Source of the DNA: Candidatus Anderseniibacteriota bacterium
Lineage (GTDB): Bacteria; Patescibacteriota; Andersenbacteria; UBA10190
Direction of reading: 5' to 3'
Assembly (NCBI GenBank): GCA_021414205.1
Contig: JAIOOW010000003.1
Coordinates: 364,365 to 428,364 of the forward strand
Length of the DNA: 64,000 nt
A program made the translations under genes and the position numbers. Below the pieces are notes generated by a model. It was not told the origin of the DNA and made no database searches. It saw only the letters and a list, made by a program, of their open reading frames with translations. The number at the start of each line of letters is the position of its first letter. The first letter of the stretch is position 1. Below, piece by piece: positions 16,102 through 49,246 of this stretch.

Positions 16102-16516
16102 GATTTAAGAGTACAGATAACAAACAAATGTCACAATCCGTCTCTTGACGCTTAGCACTCATGAGCGTAGAGTGCTAGATAGAAGTTACCTTCAACTGTC
16201 CTTGCAGTATAACAGAGGGCCAGCCAGAAAAAATTATTTGTAACCGGCAAGGCATATGTTGCATCTCGCTTAATTAGCGCAAATGTAACGCGGAAACCCC
16301 CTTATGGGTGACTCGGTTCAAAAATAATTTGGACTAGTTGCCTATCCGGGGGTTTCTTCTTGAAAAAAAGACAAGCTACTGCGCAGGAGTGGCGAATTTG
16401 AAGAGTCACCTTAAATATCTCCTGCACATGAGCTTGTCTTCTAGAAAGAACTTACCACTATAACGGCTTTTTTTGAGCTGTCAAGGTGGTGTGTATAACC
16501 ATTAATATTATATATC
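16102..16516. other. 415-bp divergent intergenic region with promoter-like elements and nested long hairpins; candidate regulatory RNA / operator region
   Basis: TTGACG-17-TAGAGT overlaps an inverted repeat agcactc…gagtgct (16147-16180). There is an 8-bp-stem long-range inverted repeat aaaccccc…gggggttt (16300-16360). A nested ~70-nt hairpin aagacaagct…gcaggag…ctcctgc…agcttgtctt lies at 16368-16441. No ORF is present. Confidence 0.35.
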
Positions 16517-16726
16517 ATGACTAGGAAACCAAAAATTGAAAAAAATCAGGCGAAGAACGGCGAGTTCTATCTAACGATAAAATCTGCAAATAATAGAAAA
16601 GTGATGACGAGCGGAGAGACGTATAAAAATCGTCAATCGTTGGATACTGCCCTTAAAGCAGCGAAGAGAATTATTAAAGGAGCAGAAGTTGTAGATAATA
16701 CGAAAAAGAAGAAGGCTACTAAATAG
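16517..16726 (+). CDS. YegP-like DUF1508 (UPF0339) small protein
   Basis: 69 aa; NGEFYLTIKSANNRKVMTSGETYKNRQSLDTALKAAKR matches the DUF1508 repeat signature. Confidence 0.75.
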   Translation: MTRKPKIEKNQAKNGEFYLTIKSANNRKVMTSGETYKNRQSLDTALKAAKRIIKGAEVVDNTKKKKATK

Positions 16727-16744
16727 TGGAGCTTTTCTTCGATT

Positions 16745-16786
16745 CCGCCTTATCTCGCAATTGAGATGAGGCGGTTACTATTTCTC
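16745..16786 (+). terminator. hairpin terminator after the yegP-like gene
   Basis: Stem ccgcct(16745-16750)/aggcgg(16769-16774) with an extended tatctc/gagatg inner pairing, followed by ttactatttctc. Confidence 0.45.
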
Positions 16787-16796
16787 ATGACACTTC

Positions 16797-41450: not shown

Positions 41451-41501
41451 AGGTATTAGTATACATGAAAAAGAAATCCCCGGCCGGTGGTCGGGGGTGT
41501 G

Positions 41502-41969
41502 TTACGTCTCTTGCATATTCTTCAGAACTTCCTGAAGAGCGCAATTCTCTGGCTTTGTTCCGCATGTCGATATCCACGTGCTCGTTTTCGGGTCTCCAAT
41601 AAGGGTTGCAAGTCTCTTGATAAGGCATTCAACAATTACGCAGGCAGAAAGATAAGTTATCGGACGTTGCAGTCTCTCGGCAGCCACTTCTGCGAGATAA
41701 TTCGTTTCTTGTCGAAGGTTAGTCTTGAGATTAAAATCATCCATGCCTGATTCGTCGAATTGCTTGAGAAGCTTGTATGCCGTACAAAAAACGGTGATAT
41801 TTTCAAGTCTCTGATTCGGATTTTCTCCGCATTGATGAATAATCGCTAGTCGCAGATATTGCGTGAAGGGACCATACAAGTATTTTGCCATGTTTCGGAT
41901 CCTTTCTGGAAAAGAACAGTCTAAATATGCGCCTATATTTGGTATGCGCTTTGCAATGGTAAGAGTCAA
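41502..41969 (-). CDS. hypothetical protein (155 aa)
   Basis: ORF inserted between ftsW and murD. No family recognised. Confidence 0.4.
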   Translation of the reverse strand: MTLTIAKRIPNIGAYLDCSFPERIRNMAKYLYGPFTQYLRLAIIHQCGENPNQRLENITVFCTAYKLLKQFDESGMDDFNLKTNLRQETNYLAEVAAERLQRPITYLSACVIVECLIKRLATLIGDPKTSTWISTCGTKPENCALQEVLKNMQET

Positions 41970-42069
41970 TATGGTTTCCGGTTGCTATTTCCAGAAGATT
42001 CGCGTACAACTATGTATTGTCTATGAATGGCTTGTTCTTTACCTGCGTAATACTAGAGAGGGCGTTTCT

Positions 42070-42654
42070 ATGCTAGATCAAAATAGTGCCATTGGCTGGG
42101 TTCGTATTGCGGGGAGTGCAGAAGCAATCGCTCGAGCTACTCCGCCGTATTGGAGGCTCACTCCTAACGTTTCTGGTGAAGTAAAGCAGCAACTCGTGCA
42201 TGAAGTTCGAGTTACTGGTACTGCAGACGGAGTAAATATGGTTGACGGAATGGAGCAAGGAGCAAGTTTTCTTCTCTGGTTTCAGATGTATGGGTCATGG
42301 TCTGTCGTAAGCGACGATGGAAAACATGTACTCGTTATTGATCTCCAAAAAGTTCCAGATGTGGCTTCGTCGATTGTAATGGATCCCGTACAAGAAATTG
42401 TTGGCAAGATCAGCGTGTACGGAGCTCCCGATTTAGCTCGAGCTGGAAACCTTGATCGATGGAGGTGCGTTGTAAACGGAAGAGAATTTCTTGTTCAATC
42501 GATGCGCGTATATGGAGAAGTCACTCACGACAATTTTCAAACCGTCGAGAATGTGTCCCCAGAAAATCGGGCAAAGTATCGCCAACAATGGCTGTCGTTT
42601 AATGGAGTGTTGCGCACAGACATTGAAGGAAATGCCTCGATAGAGGTTAGATGA
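42070..42654 (+). CDS. hypothetical protein (194 aa)
   Basis: ATG at 42070 is preceded by GAGAGGG. It is oriented divergently to the 41969 gene. The track ORF starts earlier (41863), but that part overlaps the minus-strand gene. Confidence 0.5.
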   Translation: MLDQNSAIGWVRIAGSAEAIARATPPYWRLTPNVSGEVKQQLVHEVRVTGTADGVNMVDGMEQGASFLLWFQMYGSWSVVSDDGKHVLVIDLQKVPDVASSIVMDPVQEIVGKISVYGAPDLARAGNLDRWRCVVNGREFLVQSMRVYGEVTHDNFQTVENVSPENRAKYRQQWLSFNGVLRTDIEGNASIEVR

Positions 42655-44077: not shown

Positions 44078-45157
44078 TTATTTACCAGCACCCATGCCGA
44101 GTAATCCGATAACAAGCCCAATACTTGCGGAGACCGCAGATACGATCCAGAATCGCATTGTTACTTTTGTCTCAGGCCAGCCGAGCGCTTCAAAGTGATG
44201 ATGAATGGGCGTGGAAAGAAATATTTTCTTATGAAATAGTTTTTTGGATGTCATTTGAACAATGACTGATAGTGATTCTATGACCAATGGAAACGCAATG
44301 ATCGGCAATACTAATGCAGAATTTGTAAGCATTGCAATAATCCCAAGCGTAGTACCTAGGCTCATGGCGCCGGTGTCTCCCATGAAGAATCTGGCGGGAT
44401 ATACGTTGAACCATAAGAACGCAAGGATGCCCCCGGAGATTGCGGCGCACAGCATGGATAATTCTATTCTCCCTAACGCAAATGCTAAGGCGGTGTATGC
44501 AGAAAAGGAAAAGAGCAGCATTCCTCCTGCTAGACCGTCTAATCCGTCTGCTTCATTCACGGAAAATGCGGTTGAAACAATAACGAGCATAAAGAGCGGA
44601 ATGTACCACCATCCGATTTCGAAATCTCCAATGCCCGGTACGTGAATCGTGCTCCAATCAAGCTTAGTATAAAACCACCATGCTCCAAATGCCGCAACTA
44701 TCGTATATAGGAATAAACGATGTTTCATTCTAAGCCCTCCGCCGTGCGGCCCTTTCCCTTTTACGTTTAAATAATCATCAAGCAAGCCAACGAGCGCAGA
44801 GGCTACGAGTGCCCCGAGTGGTAATAGTGTTTGCGGGCGGCTTAGAAAATTAAGCGCATAGGTGAGGTTGGATGGGAATAGCTCGCTTAAAATCCAAAAC
44901 AGAAGCGCAAGAATTGTTACAGTGCCCCAAATGATAATCCCTCCGCCTACGGGAGTGCCTGCTTTTTTTGCGTGGAGCTTGGAGTACAGCGGGGTATTTC
45001 CGGTATTGCGAATATTTTTTCCAAATTTATAGATATACAGAATATTTGTCAGCACGGGCGTGAGCAAGAACGCAATCAAAAACGTGAGCGTGCCGATTCC
45101 GACGATACGCGTTACGTTTGCAACCAAATTTGGATCAGAGAAAGCAATCATGGCCAT
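44078..45157 (-). CDS. mraY: phospho-N-acetylmuramoyl-pentapeptide transferase
   Basis: 359 aa with 10 TM helices and a MraY/WecA family DD/DxxD active-site pattern. Confidence 0.85.
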   Translation of the reverse strand: MAMIAFSDPNLVANVTRIVGIGTLTFLIAFLLTPVLTNILYIYKFGKNIRNTGNTPLYSKLHAKKAGTPVGGGIIIWGTVTILALLFWILSELFPSNLTYALNFLSRPQTLLPLGALVASALVGLLDDYLNVKGKGPHGGGLRMKHRLFLYTIVAAFGAWWFYTKLDWSTIHVPGIGDFEIGWWYIPLFMLVIVSTAFSVNEADGLDGLAGGMLLFSFSAYTALAFALGRIELSMLCAAISGGILAFLWFNVYPARFFMGDTGAMSLGTTLGIIAMLTNSALVLPIIAFPLVIESLSVIVQMTSKKLFHKKIFLSTPIHHHFEALGWPETKVTMRFWIVSAVSASIGLVIGLLGMGAGK

Positions 45158-46038
45158 GTATAGTTTCTGTATACGTACTCTACAACAGTCTTCATGTCTT
45201 GGAAACGGTCATCGCTCCCGAGGATAACCGCTCCTATTTTTTGTCCATTTGGGCCAGTGGTGATAATTGCTAAATTTTCTTTTGCTGCAAGAGTGTATCC
45301 TGTTTTTGCCGCAAGAATCGGTAGATAAGTTCCTAGTAATTTATCCGTCGTTACAAATGTATGCTTGTTTCCTTCAAGTGAAATGATCTCTCCTTTCTGT
45401 TGAGAGAGGAATGGTCGCAAAAACGGGTCGTTATATGCATTCATGAGCATGTGCTGAACATCTCGAGCAGTAGAATGCTGGATGCCTTCCTGTAATCCAG
45501 TTGAATTCGCCTGGAGCGTATGGAAGAGTCCGTGCGATGCGGCATAGGTATTCGAGTATTCAACGAATGCTGCTTCTGATCCTTTCGCCGCAACTGCAAG
45601 CGACACCATTGCATCGTTTGCGGACGGAATTAAACTTGCTTCGTATAAATCAGCAGCAGATATATGCTCTCCCGGAATAAGCTTGATGCCCACGCCTTCT
45701 GACTGCGCTTTTTTTACTTCGGGCGGAATTGTAACTATTTGACTTGGAGGAACGAGGGATCTGGCAACAACGGTGGATAGTAATTTATTTAAGCTTGCAA
45801 TTGGTCGCTCTGTGTCCGCGTTCCGTTCGTATAAAATCGTATCTGTTGTAATATCCCATACCAGCGCAGACCCGGCGGTAAGGTCGACGTCGACAGCATT
45901 TCCTGTTTTTGTTGGTATTCTTTGAGCTGTTTGCTGAAGTTGTTCTGGAGCAAGTCCAGCTGGCAGGCATGTTGAAATTGGCTGCTGTAAAATCATGCAG
46001 CCAATAACCGTCGCTACGCCTTGAAGAATCGGAATCAT
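45148..46038 (-). CDS. D-alanyl-D-alanine carboxypeptidase (S11, low-molecular-weight PBP)
   Basis: SLNKLL (SxxK), PSAND (SxN) and AKTGYT (KTG) motifs. Confidence 0.75.
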   Translation of the reverse strand: MIPILQGVATVIGCMILQQPISTCLPAGLAPEQLQQTAQRIPTKTGNAVDVDLTAGSALVWDITTDTILYERNADTERPIASLNKLLSTVVARSLVPPSQIVTIPPEVKKAQSEGVGIKLIPGEHISAADLYEASLIPSANDAMVSLAVAAKGSEAAFVEYSNTYAASHGLFHTLQANSTGLQEGIQHSTARDVQHMLMNAYNDPFLRPFLSQQKGEIISLEGNKHTFVTTDKLLGTYLPILAAKTGYTLAAKENLAIITTGPNGQKIGAVILGSDDRFQDMKTVVEYVYRNYTWP

Positions 46039-46565
46039 TTTTCCTGAGTTACTAATCGATCGATATCTTCGCTTCTGGATAGATTTTCGAATTCTGGGAG
46101 TTCTTCTTTTTTCGTGATGCCGAGGTGCATCAATGCATCTTCCGAAATATCGTAAAGCGACGCTTTTCCGGAGGTGCGGATTTGTCTCAGTAGTCCACGT
46201 AGTAGTAATTGTCGAATCATTCTGCGAGAATCAACGCCGCGAATAGAATCTATGTCGTATCGGGAAATGGGCCCTTTATATGCAATAACGGAAAGCGTTT
46301 CCATTGCAGCTTTTGAAAGTTCGTTTCCTCCTTCTTCCGCAAATTGCGCTAAAAATTCCGCAACTTCTTGACTGGTTACCAATTGAGCGTGTGTATTTGT
46401 AGTAACCAAGGCTAATCCGTGATGTTGTAATTCGGCAGATAATTCTTCCAATGCTTTTTTGATCTGTTCTTCTGGTACGTTTAATAATTGAGATAAATCA
46501 GAAAACGTCACTGCTTCTCCGGCAGTAAACAGCAGCGCTTCAATGTGTTGAGTGAGGCTTGTCAT
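46035..46565 (-). CDS. scpB: segregation and condensation protein B
   Basis: 176 aa; tandem winged-helix ScpB signature (…HIEALLFTAGEAV…). Confidence 0.8.
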   Translation of the reverse strand: MTSLTQHIEALLFTAGEAVTFSDLSQLLNVPEEQIKKALEELSAELQHHGLALVTTNTHAQLVTSQEVAEFLAQFAEEGGNELSKAAMETLSVIAYKGPISRYDIDSIRGVDSRRMIRQLLLRGLLRQIRTSGKASLYDISEDALMHLGITKKEELPEFENLSRSEDIDRLVTQEK

Positions 46566-47323
46566 ATTTTATGTACTGTAAGTGTACTAAATGCCCCGTC
46601 TTGTTCCAATCGAACAGAATTCTTACGCGCCATTTCTAAAACCGCCAAAAACGAGACTGCCTGTTCTTGCCGAGTTGATCCGCGTACAGTGTCTTGGAAA
46701 ATTAATTTCTTTGCTGTTGCTAGTCTGTCTTGAAATAGTGCTAAGATATCTTTCATGGATCGTCCGCGTTGGACTAAGTGCGCGGAAGGTTGCGGAGCGG
46801 GAGGTATTCGGTTAATTAAATGTTGTAATGCACCGGCGATTTGCTCAGATGTTATATTTGGCATTCCCGTTTCTGCGCGCTCTTGAAATTCTCCTTCTGC
46901 AAAATAGTGAGCAGGTAAAAGAGGTTTTGCATTCCATCTTGCGTGCAATACCTCTGCGATTGCGCGGAATTTTTCATATTGAGACAGTCTGTATTGCAAG
47001 TCAGAAATTTCTTCTTCCTCTTCAGTTTTTTGCGACGGCACCATTTGCCGAACTTTAATGAGTAGCAATGTTGAGGCAACGACTAAGAATGATCCGATAA
47101 TCTCAGTATCTATTTCATGTTCTTTTATATACTGCAAAAAAGAATCAGTGAGATTTTTCAGGTTAATTTCAGATAGGCTAATCTGCTCTTTTTTTGCCAG
47201 CTCAACTAATAGGTCGTACGGCCCTTCGTATTGCTCGATTTTTACTTCAGGAAGCGCAAATTGCATTCCTAGAGCATACCAAGTAATGGTTGACACATCT
47301 AGGGCGAATAGGTACATATGCAA
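46562..47323 (-). CDS. scpA: segregation and condensation protein A (kleisin)
   Basis: 253 aa with ScpA N-terminal (…GPYDLLVELAKKEQISL…) and C-terminal winged helix. Confidence 0.8.
   Translation of the reverse strand: MHMYLFALDVSTITWYALGMQFALPEVKIEQYEGPYDLLVELAKKEQISLSEINLKNLTDSFLQYIKEHEIDTEIIGSFLVVASTLLLIKVRQMVPSQKTEEEEEISDLQYRLSQYEKFRAIAEVLHARWNAKPLLPAHYFAEGEFQERAETGMPNITSEQIAGALQHLINRIPPAPQPSAHLVQRGRSMKDILALFQDRLATAKKLIFQDTVRGSTRQEQAVSFLAVLEMARKNSVRLEQDGAFSTLTVHKI
47290..47318 (+). promoter_or_regulatory. sigma70-type promoter TTGACA-17-TACATA (unit 1 of a duplicated promoter-leader)
   Basis: ttgaca at 47290-47295, 17-nt spacer, tacata at 47313-47318. A conserved leader tgttcattttatgga follows at 47344-47358. 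Confidence 0.45.
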
Positions 47324-47365
47324 TAGGGTTTACAGTCGATAGTTGTTCATTTTATGGAGGCTTCG

Positions 47366-47713
47366 ATGAATAGGACACTTGAAACGGAAGCGAAAAGATT
47401 GGAAGAGGTTCCACTCGCACTTCAAGTTCTTCTGGAGCAGGGTGAGATAGTGGTGCCTATCCTCGTAAGGTCGAACGTCATTCAAGAAGATGACAAGACA
47501 GGAGTTCGTCCGGCATTGGCGCTGGTAGTCACGCTGCTTCGAGGAGGGGTTGCGAAGGTGTGGGTAAAAGTTGTCGAGCAATCTGAGGTTACTCCTATCG
47601 TGGCGCGAGACATGATAGCGGGCCAATTCCATGCATTTCATTCTGATGCTGAGTTGGTTGCGACTGTGGAACGTGGCGATAGGCATATCGCCGTGGTGAT
47701 GCTCAAAAAATAA
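47366..47713 (+). CDS. hypothetical small protein (115 aa)
   Basis: GGAGG lies 5 nt upstream of the ATG at 47366; an in-frame ATG at 47354 is also possible. It has its own promoter and terminator. No family recognised. Confidence 0.5.
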   Translation: MNRTLETEAKRLEEVPLALQVLLEQGEIVVPILVRSNVIQEDDKTGVRPALALVVTLLRGGVAKVWVKVVEQSEVTPIVARDMIAGQFHAFHSDAELVATVERGDRHIAVVMLKK

Positions 47714-47741
47714 TGCTTTCTATCCAAGTAATGTCCTTGGG

Positions 47742-47770
47742 TCCCCGACTAACAACCGGGGATTTTTATT
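47742..47770 (+). terminator. intrinsic terminator (tccccg-actaacaac-cgggga + TTTTTATT)
   Basis: Stem 47742-47747/47757-47762 with a T-run at 47763-47770. Confidence 0.6.
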
Positions 47771-47792
47771 GATCAGCATACCAACTATTGAT

Positions 47793-47821
47793 TGACAAAT
47801 CCAGCTGGAACAGGTATACAT
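47793..47821 (+). promoter_or_regulatory. sigma70-type promoter TTGACA-17-TATACA (unit 2), followed by the same 15-nt leader at 47846-47860
   Basis: ttgaca at 47793-47798, 17-nt spacer, tataca at 47816-47821. The region from -10 to the leader is ~70% identical to unit 1. Confidence 0.5.
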
Positions 47822-47869
47822 GCATGAGGTTCAAGTTAGATACCCTGTTCATTTTATGGAAAGACTGTC

Positions 47870-48358
47870 ATGTCGCAGGCGGTTTTGGATGTTGAGCAGT
47901 TGGCACGTACTCCAAACTCATGTCCAATTGTTTTAAAGGACGTGTTTGGCGATCCGGTGATGTCCGTTATCCCTATTCCCCCTCAGCAGCAAAGTCCCGG
48001 ATGCAGCAGTTCGGTATGCGTTGCTATCCCCGATCTTACGTTCATTAGGAACGGAAATCGGGACCACCATTGTTTGAAAATTCTTTCTTCGGATCCCGTC
48101 CAGATACTCGAGGCTCGGATTCGAAAATTCGGAATCGACGTACTCGACAATCCCAGAAGCCACCCTTTTCTTGAAGAAAGGGGTGCGTGGAGTATTTGTG
48201 TGGCGAGTGTCGGACCAAAATCCCGCGGCGATTATCCGGTTAAAATCCTCGTTACCATTCAATGCTGGTGGATGCGGTTTATTCCATTCGAAAAACGCGC
48301 CTTGATTATTGTTTCTCACGAGGAACTTAGTCGATTCGCAAAAGCAATCTCTTCTTGA
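47870..48358 (+). CDS. hypothetical protein (162 aa)
   Basis: ORF with its own promoter and terminator. No family recognised. Weak N-terminal resemblance to the 115-aa protein. Confidence 0.5.
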   Translation: MSQAVLDVEQLARTPNSCPIVLKDVFGDPVMSVIPIPPQQQSPGCSSSVCVAIPDLTFIRNGNRDHHCLKILSSDPVQILEARIRKFGIDVLDNPRSHPFLEERGAWSICVASVGPKSRGDYPVKILVTIQCWWMRFIPFEKRALIIVSHEELSRFAKAISS

Positions 48359-48380
48359 AGGACGACAAGCAACTTGAAAG

Positions 48381-48412
48381 CCCCCCCGACTCACCATCGG
48401 GGTTTATTTTTT
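48381..48412 (+). terminator. intrinsic terminator (ccccg-actcaccat-cgggg + TTTATTTTTT), stem nearly identical to the 47742 terminator
   Basis: Stem 48384-48388/48398-48402 with a T-run at 48403-48412, overlapping the stop of the convergent GT2 gene. Confidence 0.6.
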
Positions 48413-49214
48413 ATGTATGAGCGGGCTCCTCTTTTCCCCTAAACTTCCAGAAATATTTGAACGCAGATTTGATATGTTCTCGTGTTGGGCGGTTTGTTAA
48501 TATGCCGATGATTGCATTGCGTTCGCTACTTCGCTGATGGAAATGAGAAAATACGGCAGATGGTACGTATGTAACGCGCCAGCCTTTCTCCCAAAACCGT
48601 CGGCACCAATCTACGTCTTCAAAGTATAGGAAAAATTGCTCGTCCATTTTTCCAACTTTTTCCATCGCCTTTTTGCGAACCATGAGGCACGCACCCATGA
48701 GCCAGTCCACGTCTTTTATTTCAGCATGATCGAAATCTTTCATTAAGAAGCTGGAGATTGCTTTTTTACCCACAGCAGTTTTTCCTAAGAATGTCCGGCG
48801 GTAGATGATTGTCATCACCGTATAAAATCGATAGCACGAATACTGGAGTTTTCCGTTCGGAGAAATTAATTTTCCGCCGGATACGCCTACATCCGAATTC
48901 GCATCCATGAAGTCTATGAGGGTCTGAACAGATCCGGGTAATGCAATCATGTCCGGGTTTAACACGAGGTAGTAACTTCCTTTTGCCTTTTTCAGTGCAA
49001 CGTTAACTCCTGCAGCAAGGCCCATGTTTTCCGGATTATCGATGACCGTTATTTCAGGAAAATCTGAACGTAGTAAATACACGCTGTCGTCTCCTGAATT
49101 ATTATCAACAACGATTATTTCCGTAGACTTCGGCAGGTCTTTTAACAACGACTCAACCAGCGCTCGGGTGAGTTGCCACATCTTATAATTAACGATAATG
49201 ATTGAGAGTTTCAT
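48411..49214 (-). CDS. glycosyltransferase family 2
   Basis: Signature LSIIIVNYKMWQLT…VVDNNSGDDS… (GT-A, DxD). Confidence 0.8.
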   Translation of the reverse strand: MKLSIIIVNYKMWQLTRALVESLLKDLPKSTEIIVVDNNSGDDSVYLLRSDFPEITVIDNPENMGLAAGVNVALKKAKGSYYLVLNPDMIALPGSVQTLIDFMDANSDVGVSGGKLISPNGKLQYSCYRFYTVMTIIYRRTFLGKTAVGKKAISSFLMKDFDHAEIKDVDWLMGACLMVRKKAMEKVGKMDEQFFLYFEDVDWCRRFWEKGWRVTYVPSAVFSHFHQRSSERNAIIGILTNRPTREHIKSAFKYFWKFRGKEEPAHT

Positions 49215-49246
49215 ATTGGGAACTTGTTAAAATGGCATAGAAGTAT

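Follow-up and report, generated by a model that had tools for sequence, protein, structure and literature searches.

Two unrelated orphan genes on paralogous copies of one regulatory scaffold at a strain-variable slot in an Andersenbacteria genome

How do two short genes with unrelated coding sequences come to stand in tandem, each between near-copies of the same promoter, leader and terminator? The question is raised by a locus in a 64,000-nucleotide (64-kb) stretch of contig JAIOOW010000003.1, here called the window, in which almost every gene is held by the minus strand. The two units lie on the plus strand, between scpA (minus) and a family-2 glycosyltransferase gene, GT2a (48411-49214, minus). 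By the Pfam labels of orthologs in relatives, the surrounding row reads GT2b-GT2a-scpA-scpB-dac (a PBP5-type carboxypeptidase)-mraY-murD. We call the scpA/GT2a gap slot 1 and the GT2b/GT2a gap slot 2. L-numbered loci are contigs fetched from relatives that hold homologs of either open reading frame (ORF1 or ORF2) or of GT2a; 104 of these loci, 694 kb in all, were profile-scanned. Both units are autonomous, carry a single gene each and run opposite in strand to this conserved cell-envelope and segregation gene row. Both genes are entries of a Candidatus Andersenbacteria metagenome-assembled genome, labelled 'hypothetical protein' and 100% identical (ORF1 MCE9643602.1, K8Q97_04825; ORF2 MCE9643603.1, K8Q97_04830). 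The locus is a strain-variable insertion site, not a new regulatory system, and we consider it probable that its regulatory scaffold was duplicated and its orphan genes swapped, in a slot that is polymorphic, with the units acting as moron-like inserts.

The anatomy of the units is directly visible, with promoters and terminators as predicted elements; both promoters are near-consensus and of sigma-70 type (TTGACA-17-TAnAnA).

47273..47282, plus strand: 10-mer AGCATACCAA, copy 1, at the left edge of the 5' repeat and a breakpoint of a 502-bp indel
47273..47358, plus strand: unit 1 5' module, with -35 TTGACA at 47290-47295, a 17-nt spacer, -10 TACATA at 47313-47318, the leader and a 15-mer at 47344-47358
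47356..47360, plus strand: ORF1 Shine-Dalgarno GGAGG, 5 nt before the ATG at 47366; same layout in L004 and L096
47366..47713, plus strand: ORF1, 115 aa, orphan gene; homologs in L004-L007 (92%) and L096 (51%)
47724..47777, plus strand: unit 1 3' module, with a small hairpin at 47724-47740, the terminator hairpin at 47741-47763 (CCCCGACTAACAACCGGGG), a T-run and TTATTGATCAGC, which resembles the GT2a 3' end
47775..47860, plus strand: unit 2 5' module, with 10-mer copy 2 at 47775-47784, -35 TTGACA at 47792-47797, -10 TATACA at 47815-47820 and the 15-mer at 47846-47860
47870..48358, plus strand: ORF2, 162 aa, orphan gene; found in only four close lineages
48361..48422, plus strand: unit 2 3' module, with a small hairpin at 48366-48376, the terminator hairpin at 48384-48402 (CCCCGACTCACCATCGGGG) and a T-run

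Over 86 ungapped positions the two 5' modules (47273-47358 and 47775-47860) agree at 59, the copies lying exactly 502 nt apart; in each unit the repeat takes in the two promoter boxes (-35 and -10) with their spacer, the leader and the ribosome-binding site. Shuffled sequences gave a mean of 38.8 matches (standard deviation 1.6, maximum 46), placing the observed value about 12 standard deviations above them. The pattern TTGACA-N14-AGGTAnAnA has just two matches in the 64 kb, the two unit promoters, where 0.09 would be expected, and the 15-mer TGTTCATTTTATGGA occurs in the window at 47344 and 47846 only. The leader, unstructured and about 40 nt long, ends in a Shine-Dalgarno sequence (GGAGG or GGAAAG), with the ATG 5-7 nt downstream. 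Another ATG lies within the 15-mer, in frame with ORF1 (47354, upstream of 47366) and out of frame with ORF2 (47856, upstream of 47870). It is probably not a start codon, because it overlaps the Shine-Dalgarno sequence of the downstream ATG and, in L096, does not share the reading frame of the ORF1 homolog; the starts would then be 47366 and 47870, and the NCBI annotation also gives the 115-aa form of ORF1. A further 10-mer repeat, CCAAGTAATG at 47279 and 47724, was judged to be at chance level.

A second repeat of about 55 nt (about 47724-47777 and 48361-48422), which includes CCCCGACTnACnAnCGGGG and a T-run, covers both predicted terminators. Each copy is built of a small hairpin, a CCCCG/CGGGG stem whose loop is conserved, a T-run and some bases past it. 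Past terminator 1 the sequence reads TTTTTATTGATCAGC, with AGCATACCAA directly downstream; it is similar to the TTTTTATGTATGAGC past terminator 2 that forms the GT2a 3' end. In unit 2 the T-run overlaps the GT2a stop codon (48411-48413, minus strand). The offset between the 3' modules is about 641 nt, against 502 nt for the 5' modules, in the same orientation, and the interior is not homologous. The original prediction had described two plus-strand units with a common regulatory skeleton, and every element it listed is present: the promoters (the first at 47290 as given, the second at 47792, one base before its 47793), the similar leaders with an identical 15-mer whose ATG is in frame only in unit 1, and the near-identical terminator stems. 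Aligned in full, the similarity runs past these short motifs, over the ungapped 86 nt at the 5' end, longer than had been described, and over the 3' repeat.

The genes between these flanks are a different matter. Paralogy of ORF1 and ORF2 was rejected (BLASTP E 8.9; z<2 in DNA and 3x3-frame comparisons), and profiles of ORF1 and of the slot 2 proteins showed no relationship to any of the six frames of the ORF2 region. With no common coding origin in any frame, divergence after duplication does not explain ORF2. The duplication of a whole expression unit proposed in the original prediction, with coding parts diverged or swapped, thus stands for its homologous control parts but not for divergence, the unrelated ORFs leaving the swap. 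Both ORFs are genuine genes under purifying selection, as judged from codon comparisons: ORF2 is intact and exactly 162 aa in 4/4 lineages (the window, L001, L002/3 and L004-7), with a ratio of nonsynonymous to synonymous substitution rates (dN/dS) of 0.12-0.26 over six pairs and substitutions concentrated at third codon positions, and the dN/dS of ORF1 is 0.16 (window versus L004). As had been predicted, the two are unrecognisable and richer in guanine and cytosine (GC) than their surroundings. The GC contents of ORF1 (0.500, z 3.0) and ORF2 (0.481, z 1.9) exceed all 31 long genes of the window (0.444 +/- 0.019, maximum 0.479), although the excess is modest.

Homologs of both genes are confined to close Andersenbacteria relatives. 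ORF2 has only three matches among 5.8e9 clusters and its profile finds only its own cluster among 1.84e9 representatives; ORF1 has one cluster, plus the L096 homolog. Searches with both against Pfam, PADLOC, PHROGs, NCBIfam and PDB sequences gave nothing significant. As to a viral origin, there were no homologs in phage or viral collections, with a best E of 0.2 for ORF2 and no match for ORF1 among phage records, and none in IMG/VR contigs. An antisense ORF lying over ORF2 (47933-48397, minus; 154 aa in the window, 181 aa in L004 at L004:5497-6042, minus) was rejected as a real gene on its dN/dS of 0.8-2.3 and stop codons in 3/4 lineages; it had no Pfam match. It is this ORF, instead of ORF2, that is called as a gene in four ENA assemblies (L004-L007) and one Logan assembly, an annotation problem that we flag here.

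Slot 1 itself is polymorphic among relatives, as can be seen directly from its content.

Window and L004-L007: ORF1 and ORF2 in tandem
L001 and L002/L003: ORF2 only
L096 (GT2a 87% to the window): ORF1 homolog only, with TTGACA-17-TACATA, a leader containing ..CGTTTTATGGAGG.. and a terminator of the same kind
L101 (GT2a 82%): an unrelated 182-aa gene with different signals
L097 and L104: 105-143 nt made up of GC-rich palindromes, no ORF
L098-L100, L103 and L016: 18-50 nt, empty
47273..47774, plus strand: the 502-bp segment of unit 1, missing in L001 and L002/L003

With 47273-47774 removed in silico, the window and L001 aligned at 94.3% identity, and no gap interrupted the alignment at the junction. 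Unit 1 is thus an exact 502-bp presence/absence difference with its breakpoints in the repeated 10-mer. The slot is empty in more distant genomes, and this indicates that the cassettes would be derived insertions into a once contiguous gene row. A metagenome scan with GT2a (Joint Genome Institute) found one moderately close locus only (L016, 65%). The original prediction had also spoken of a cassette system; it holds in so far as this slot and skeleton carry ORF1, ORF2 or both among relatives, but a wider system finds no support, the module having no further copy in the window, in the 694 kb of related loci or in the one relative genome scanned, and only two ORF types are known to use it.

The modules record how old the two types may be. 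In a seven-sequence alignment, identity is 84-94% among the four lineages' unit 2 modules and 99% between the window and L004 in unit 1, whilst unit 1, unit 2 and L096 modules are 62-70% identical to each other, implying that the types split about as long ago as the split from L096. The 10-mer AGCATACCAA is perfectly kept in every copy adjoining scpA and has decayed in the internal copy, that of unit 2, in L004 (AGCATGTCAG); for this reason it seems that some of the sequence upstream of scpA was copied in the duplication. Its reverse complement, TTGGTATGCT, lies 6 nt before the scpA ATG and is a possible extended -10 element of that gene.

47264..47266, minus strand: probable true start ATG of scpA (relatives' gene calls of 234-235 aa; gap-free codon alignment from this ATG)

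The mechanically called scpA ORF reaches back to a TTG at 47323, a start that is probably wrong. A hexamer stands 4-7 nt before the scpA ATG in the window (TATGCT, within 47264-47282, minus strand), L016 (TACGCT, within L016:880-901) and L098 (TACGCA, within L098:4308-4328), with a TG upstream of it in the window and L016. This points to a possible -10 element near enough to the ATG for scpA to be read from a leaderless mRNA.

The neighbouring sequence carries marks of recombination. L001 (2781-4899) and L004 (2795-4913) are 100% identical over dac-scpB-scpA, a tract of about 2.1 kb that ends at slot 1 (equivalent to window 45137-47260), and about 80-94% identical on either side of it. Between the window and L004, synonymous divergence (dS) is 0.23 in ORF1, like the left-hand block, 0.59 in ORF2 and 1.5 in GT2a. 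Together with the identical tract, these differing values show the locus to be a mosaic, with one recombination tract ending at the cassette. We take the tract to reflect recent homologous recombination between co-occurring strains. An assembly chimera is less likely, and against it L004 and L006, from different assemblies, each span scpA and the ORF1 and ORF2 junction. Such a mosaic would fit gain and loss of cassettes by homologous exchange.

If the scaffold was duplicated and the genes swapped, the likeliest course of events would start from one cassette in slot 1. The whole intergenic segment, from the scpA-proximal 10-mer through the last few GT2a codons, would have been duplicated in tandem, and one copy would then have gained a different coding segment; by an equivalent route, two slot alleles, one bearing ORF1 and the other ORF2, would have been joined. 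The duplication junction reads ...TGATC-AGC-ATACCAA, and its AGC/GCA microhomology is suggestive of what a tandem duplication of the full intergenic segment might leave. The repeated modules and the conserved flanking genes could now act as recombination substrates, giving zero, one or two cassettes among close strains. The units would be moron-like inserts in a cellular chromosome, accessory genes that are GC-richer, complete in themselves and not dependent on the neighbouring genes for their expression.

Several points weigh against this account. The argument from the duplication junction rests on about 15 nt, and only two ORF types are found on this slot 1 skeleton. The near-equal distances (62-70%) of window-clade unit 1, L096 unit 1 and unit 2 would fit more than one order of events. 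Promoters and terminators alike are predicted purely from their match to a consensus, and a generic promoter scan, whose -10 rule demands a T at position 6, listed neither promoter. On the role of the proteins, the structure model of ORF2 is unusable, with a predicted local distance difference test (pLDDT) score of 35. The AlphaFold2 model of ORF1 (pLDDT 58, predicted template modelling score 0.52) has a beta-alpha-beta-alpha-beta-beta topology; at best it matches, weakly, the IF3 C-domain and Alba proteins of the PDB (Foldseek E 4e-3 to 0.1), and a comparison with BFVD gave nothing informative. We suggest, with low confidence, that ORF1 may be a small alpha/beta nucleic-acid-binding protein. 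That the two are strain-specific accessory or conflict proteins is a guess, held with equally low confidence.

An alternative, in line with the original prediction, is that the shared leader is strongly regulated, a cis-regulatory RNA or protein-binding operator through which different small genes would be co-regulated. The identical 15-mer in both units would fit such a regulated system, as would the conservation of the unit 2 flank (84-94% identity, where third codon positions of ORF2 reach 59-81%), which points to some constraint beyond the -35, -10 and Shine-Dalgarno elements. This extra 5' constraint is adequately explained, however, if the module overlaps the divergent scpA promoter and contains an A/U-rich region for translation initiation, and the A/U-rich tract and Shine-Dalgarno sequence suffice for the conserved 15-mer. 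Nor was there any stable fold: the leaders folded no better than shuffles (z -0.38 and -0.10), the RNAalifold consensus of seven aligned leaders reached only -0.34 kcal/mol with no shared structure, and Rfam searches of the window, of the region (at E<=1) and of seven related loci all came back empty. With nhmmer profiles of both modules no further copy was found in the window or in the 694 kb of related loci, and a scan of genome contigs, in a collection without the source genome but with one scannable relative genome, returned the known L002 copy and seven chance matches, nothing else. There is thus no evidence for a riboregulator or known cis-regulatory RNA, and we regard a regulated cassette system as unlikely.

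The units might instead matter more as transcripts than for their proteins, serving on the opposite strand as insulators or as a source of antisense RNA and so uncoupling scpAB from the glycosyltransferase genes upstream of it. The row that they interrupt is co-directional, with gaps of only 18-50 nt between its genes in relatives; their terminators are unidirectional, and slot 2 of L101 retains promoter, hairpin and terminator without an ORF. Purifying selection on both ORFs, whose length is preserved, speaks against this idea, as do the many relatives without any slot 1 insert, and we find it decidedly improbable.

We rate it very unlikely that unit 1 is a 502-bp mobile insertion with AGCATACCAA as its target-site duplication and all other similarity secondary. 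Such an insertion would account for the exact 502-bp presence/absence difference bounded by a perfect 10-bp direct repeat, and the slots are insertion hot spots in relatives (a DUF559 gene, GC-rich palindromes, a DDE transposase). Yet the similarity runs 76 nt past the 10-mer and recurs at the 3' end; the inverted-repeat list holds no terminal inverted repeats, and there is no transposase or integrase. Moreover, the 10-mer is present once in single-cassette genomes, as the scpA upstream element, and no further copies of the modules turned up in the sequence scanned. Finally, convergence of the control regions on functional consensus elements (-35, -10, Shine-Dalgarno, a GC hairpin with T-run), in place of common descent, is effectively refuted by the statistics, the matches extending into the spacer (ATC.AG...GAA.AGG), upstream of -35 (AGCATACCAA.TA.TG), into the loop (ACTnACnA) and past the T-run in one ungapped register at the fixed 502-nt offset, about 12 standard deviations above shuffles.

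If the scaffold was duplicated and its genes swapped, as we favour, the locus can be set beside several known systems. Among general categories it comes closest to a strain-variable islet, here a very small one, at a hot spot of recombination. Strain-variable ('flexible') genomic islets occupy conserved intergenic hot spots and are exchanged by homologous recombination in their flanks. The locus shares with them its conserved core flanks, alternative gene content among close strains and mosaic tracts ending at the site. It differs in being tiny (0.5-1.1 kb, single orphan genes) and in having a scaffold that is conserved or duplicated whilst the ORF differs. Two unrelated orphan genes on paralogous copies of one regulatory scaffold are its unusual feature.

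The units also recall phage morons, a concept that reportedly comes from Hendrix and co-workers. In one account (PMC2920897) a moron lies between two genes that are neighbours in related genomes; it brings a promoter and a terminator of its own, deviates in base composition and occupies hot spots where inserts differ. Both units here carry their own signals (a TTGACA-17-TAnAnA promoter and a hairpin with T-run, in silico only), only 18-50 nt separate GT2a from scpA in L016, L098-100 and L103, and unit GC is modestly raised (0.500 and 0.481 against 0.444 +/- 0.019). Morons also reside in phage or prophage genomes, in more than one phage group. By contrast, the neighbours here are cellular core genes, with no phage or prophage context, PHROG or viral homolog, and adjacent inserts with paralogous control regions are foreign to the moron concept. 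The units thus work in a moron-like manner but are not members of that class.

Integron cassettes resemble the units in having one short ORF with a hairpin-forming 3' element, in tandem and strain-variable. Here, however, each unit has its own promoter, where integrons use a common Pc, no integrase lies nearby and there are at most two units; the 3' element, a 5-7 bp terminator stem with T-run, looks like a plain intrinsic terminator, not attC. With tandem segmental duplication, a known source of new genes, the locus shares a head-to-tail repeat of the full expression unit and possible junction microhomology, but here the coding parts are without trace of common origin in any frame. Two further candidates were rejected. 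In the case of a toxin-antitoxin pair, a terminator and second promoter separate the genes, each occurs alone in relatives (L001, L096) and there is no Pfam or PADLOC match. In that of an insertion sequence or miniature inverted-repeat transposable element, a 10-bp direct repeat is present, but there are no terminal inverted repeats and no further copies in the sequence scanned.

Other material occupies the slots of relatives. GC-rich palindromic repeats (e.g. CCCTCTCCC-nnnn-GGGAGAGGG, GCCCTCACCC) fill otherwise empty slots, at L097:4275-4417, L104:4281-4385, L099:2544-3050, L100:949-1450, L101:3160-3500 and L103:2925-3120, and in L099/L100 they stand on both sides of a gene for a Vsr-like endonuclease (DUF559). 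Such repeats may be mobile elements of small size or REP-like (repetitive extragenic palindromic) ones. The L105 contig, which ends before GT2b, carries a gene for a DDE transposase (PF01609/PF13359; 79-939) upstream of GT2a, towards slot 2 and putatively within it, and this supports the region as an insertion hot spot. In L102 (780-2479; GT2a 81%) the carboxypeptidase gene directly follows GT2a, and scpA and scpB are absent there. The window itself has other plus-strand islands in its minus-strand row, one at 41487-42654 with 87-aa and 263-aa ORFs and an ortholog in L001/L002 without a Pfam match, the other at 16102-16796, where a 415-nt gap is followed by a 69-aa plus-strand ORF. Both may be further accessory inserts.

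Slot 2 is a stronger case of a constant scaffold with a variable ORF than slot 1. It is empty in the window (49215-49246) and in L096, and in eight other lineages it carries conserved opposite-strand signals: a TTGACA-17-TATAAT-like promoter, an invariant CTATCT, a short leader hairpin, a GGTTCTTTGAAA-ATG ribosome-binding region and a terminator.

Slot 2 in relatives: L001:6330-6860, L002:6331-6960, L004:6847-7320, L097:2887-3500, L099:2544-3500, L103:2925-3500, L104:2972-3500

The hairpin shows compensatory changes (GTGCCA..TGGCAC versus GTGGGA..TCCCAC) and has no Rfam match. The slot 2 ORFs, of 80-157 aa, are mostly unrelated and without Pfam matches, and L101 keeps promoter, hairpin and terminator with no ORF at all. 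The L001 protein (L001_s2_120) shares an N-terminal half with L099_s2_117 and L100_s2_128 at 43-44% identity (motif GGVPV...AVNFLRSGC), whilst the C-terminal halves are unrelated. ORF1 carries an LLRGGV segment faintly like this motif; its match to the slot 2 protein family is marginal (hmmsearch E ~1e-3 in a 14-sequence database, hhalign probability 13%).

The pattern in slot 2 motivates a further reading, in which the intergenic slots of this clade carry resident promoter-leader-terminator scaffolds and unrelated coding segments are exchanged or born within them. Slot 1 holds ORF1, ORF2 or both, and slot 2 at least seven unrelated ORFs behind one promoter and leader hairpin. We put this forward tentatively, as an unlikely possibility. 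If true, cassettes would be exchanged, or genes born, without an integrase, and orphan genes would find their expression signals already in place. The locus bears on how orphan genes gain working promoters, ribosome-binding sites and terminators, and since zero-, one- and two-cassette states all occur in natural relatives, it allows the individual steps to be retraced. It also shows that bacteria of the Candidate Phyla Radiation (CPR), whose genomes are small and streamlined, keep tiny strain-variable accessory slots inside core operons.

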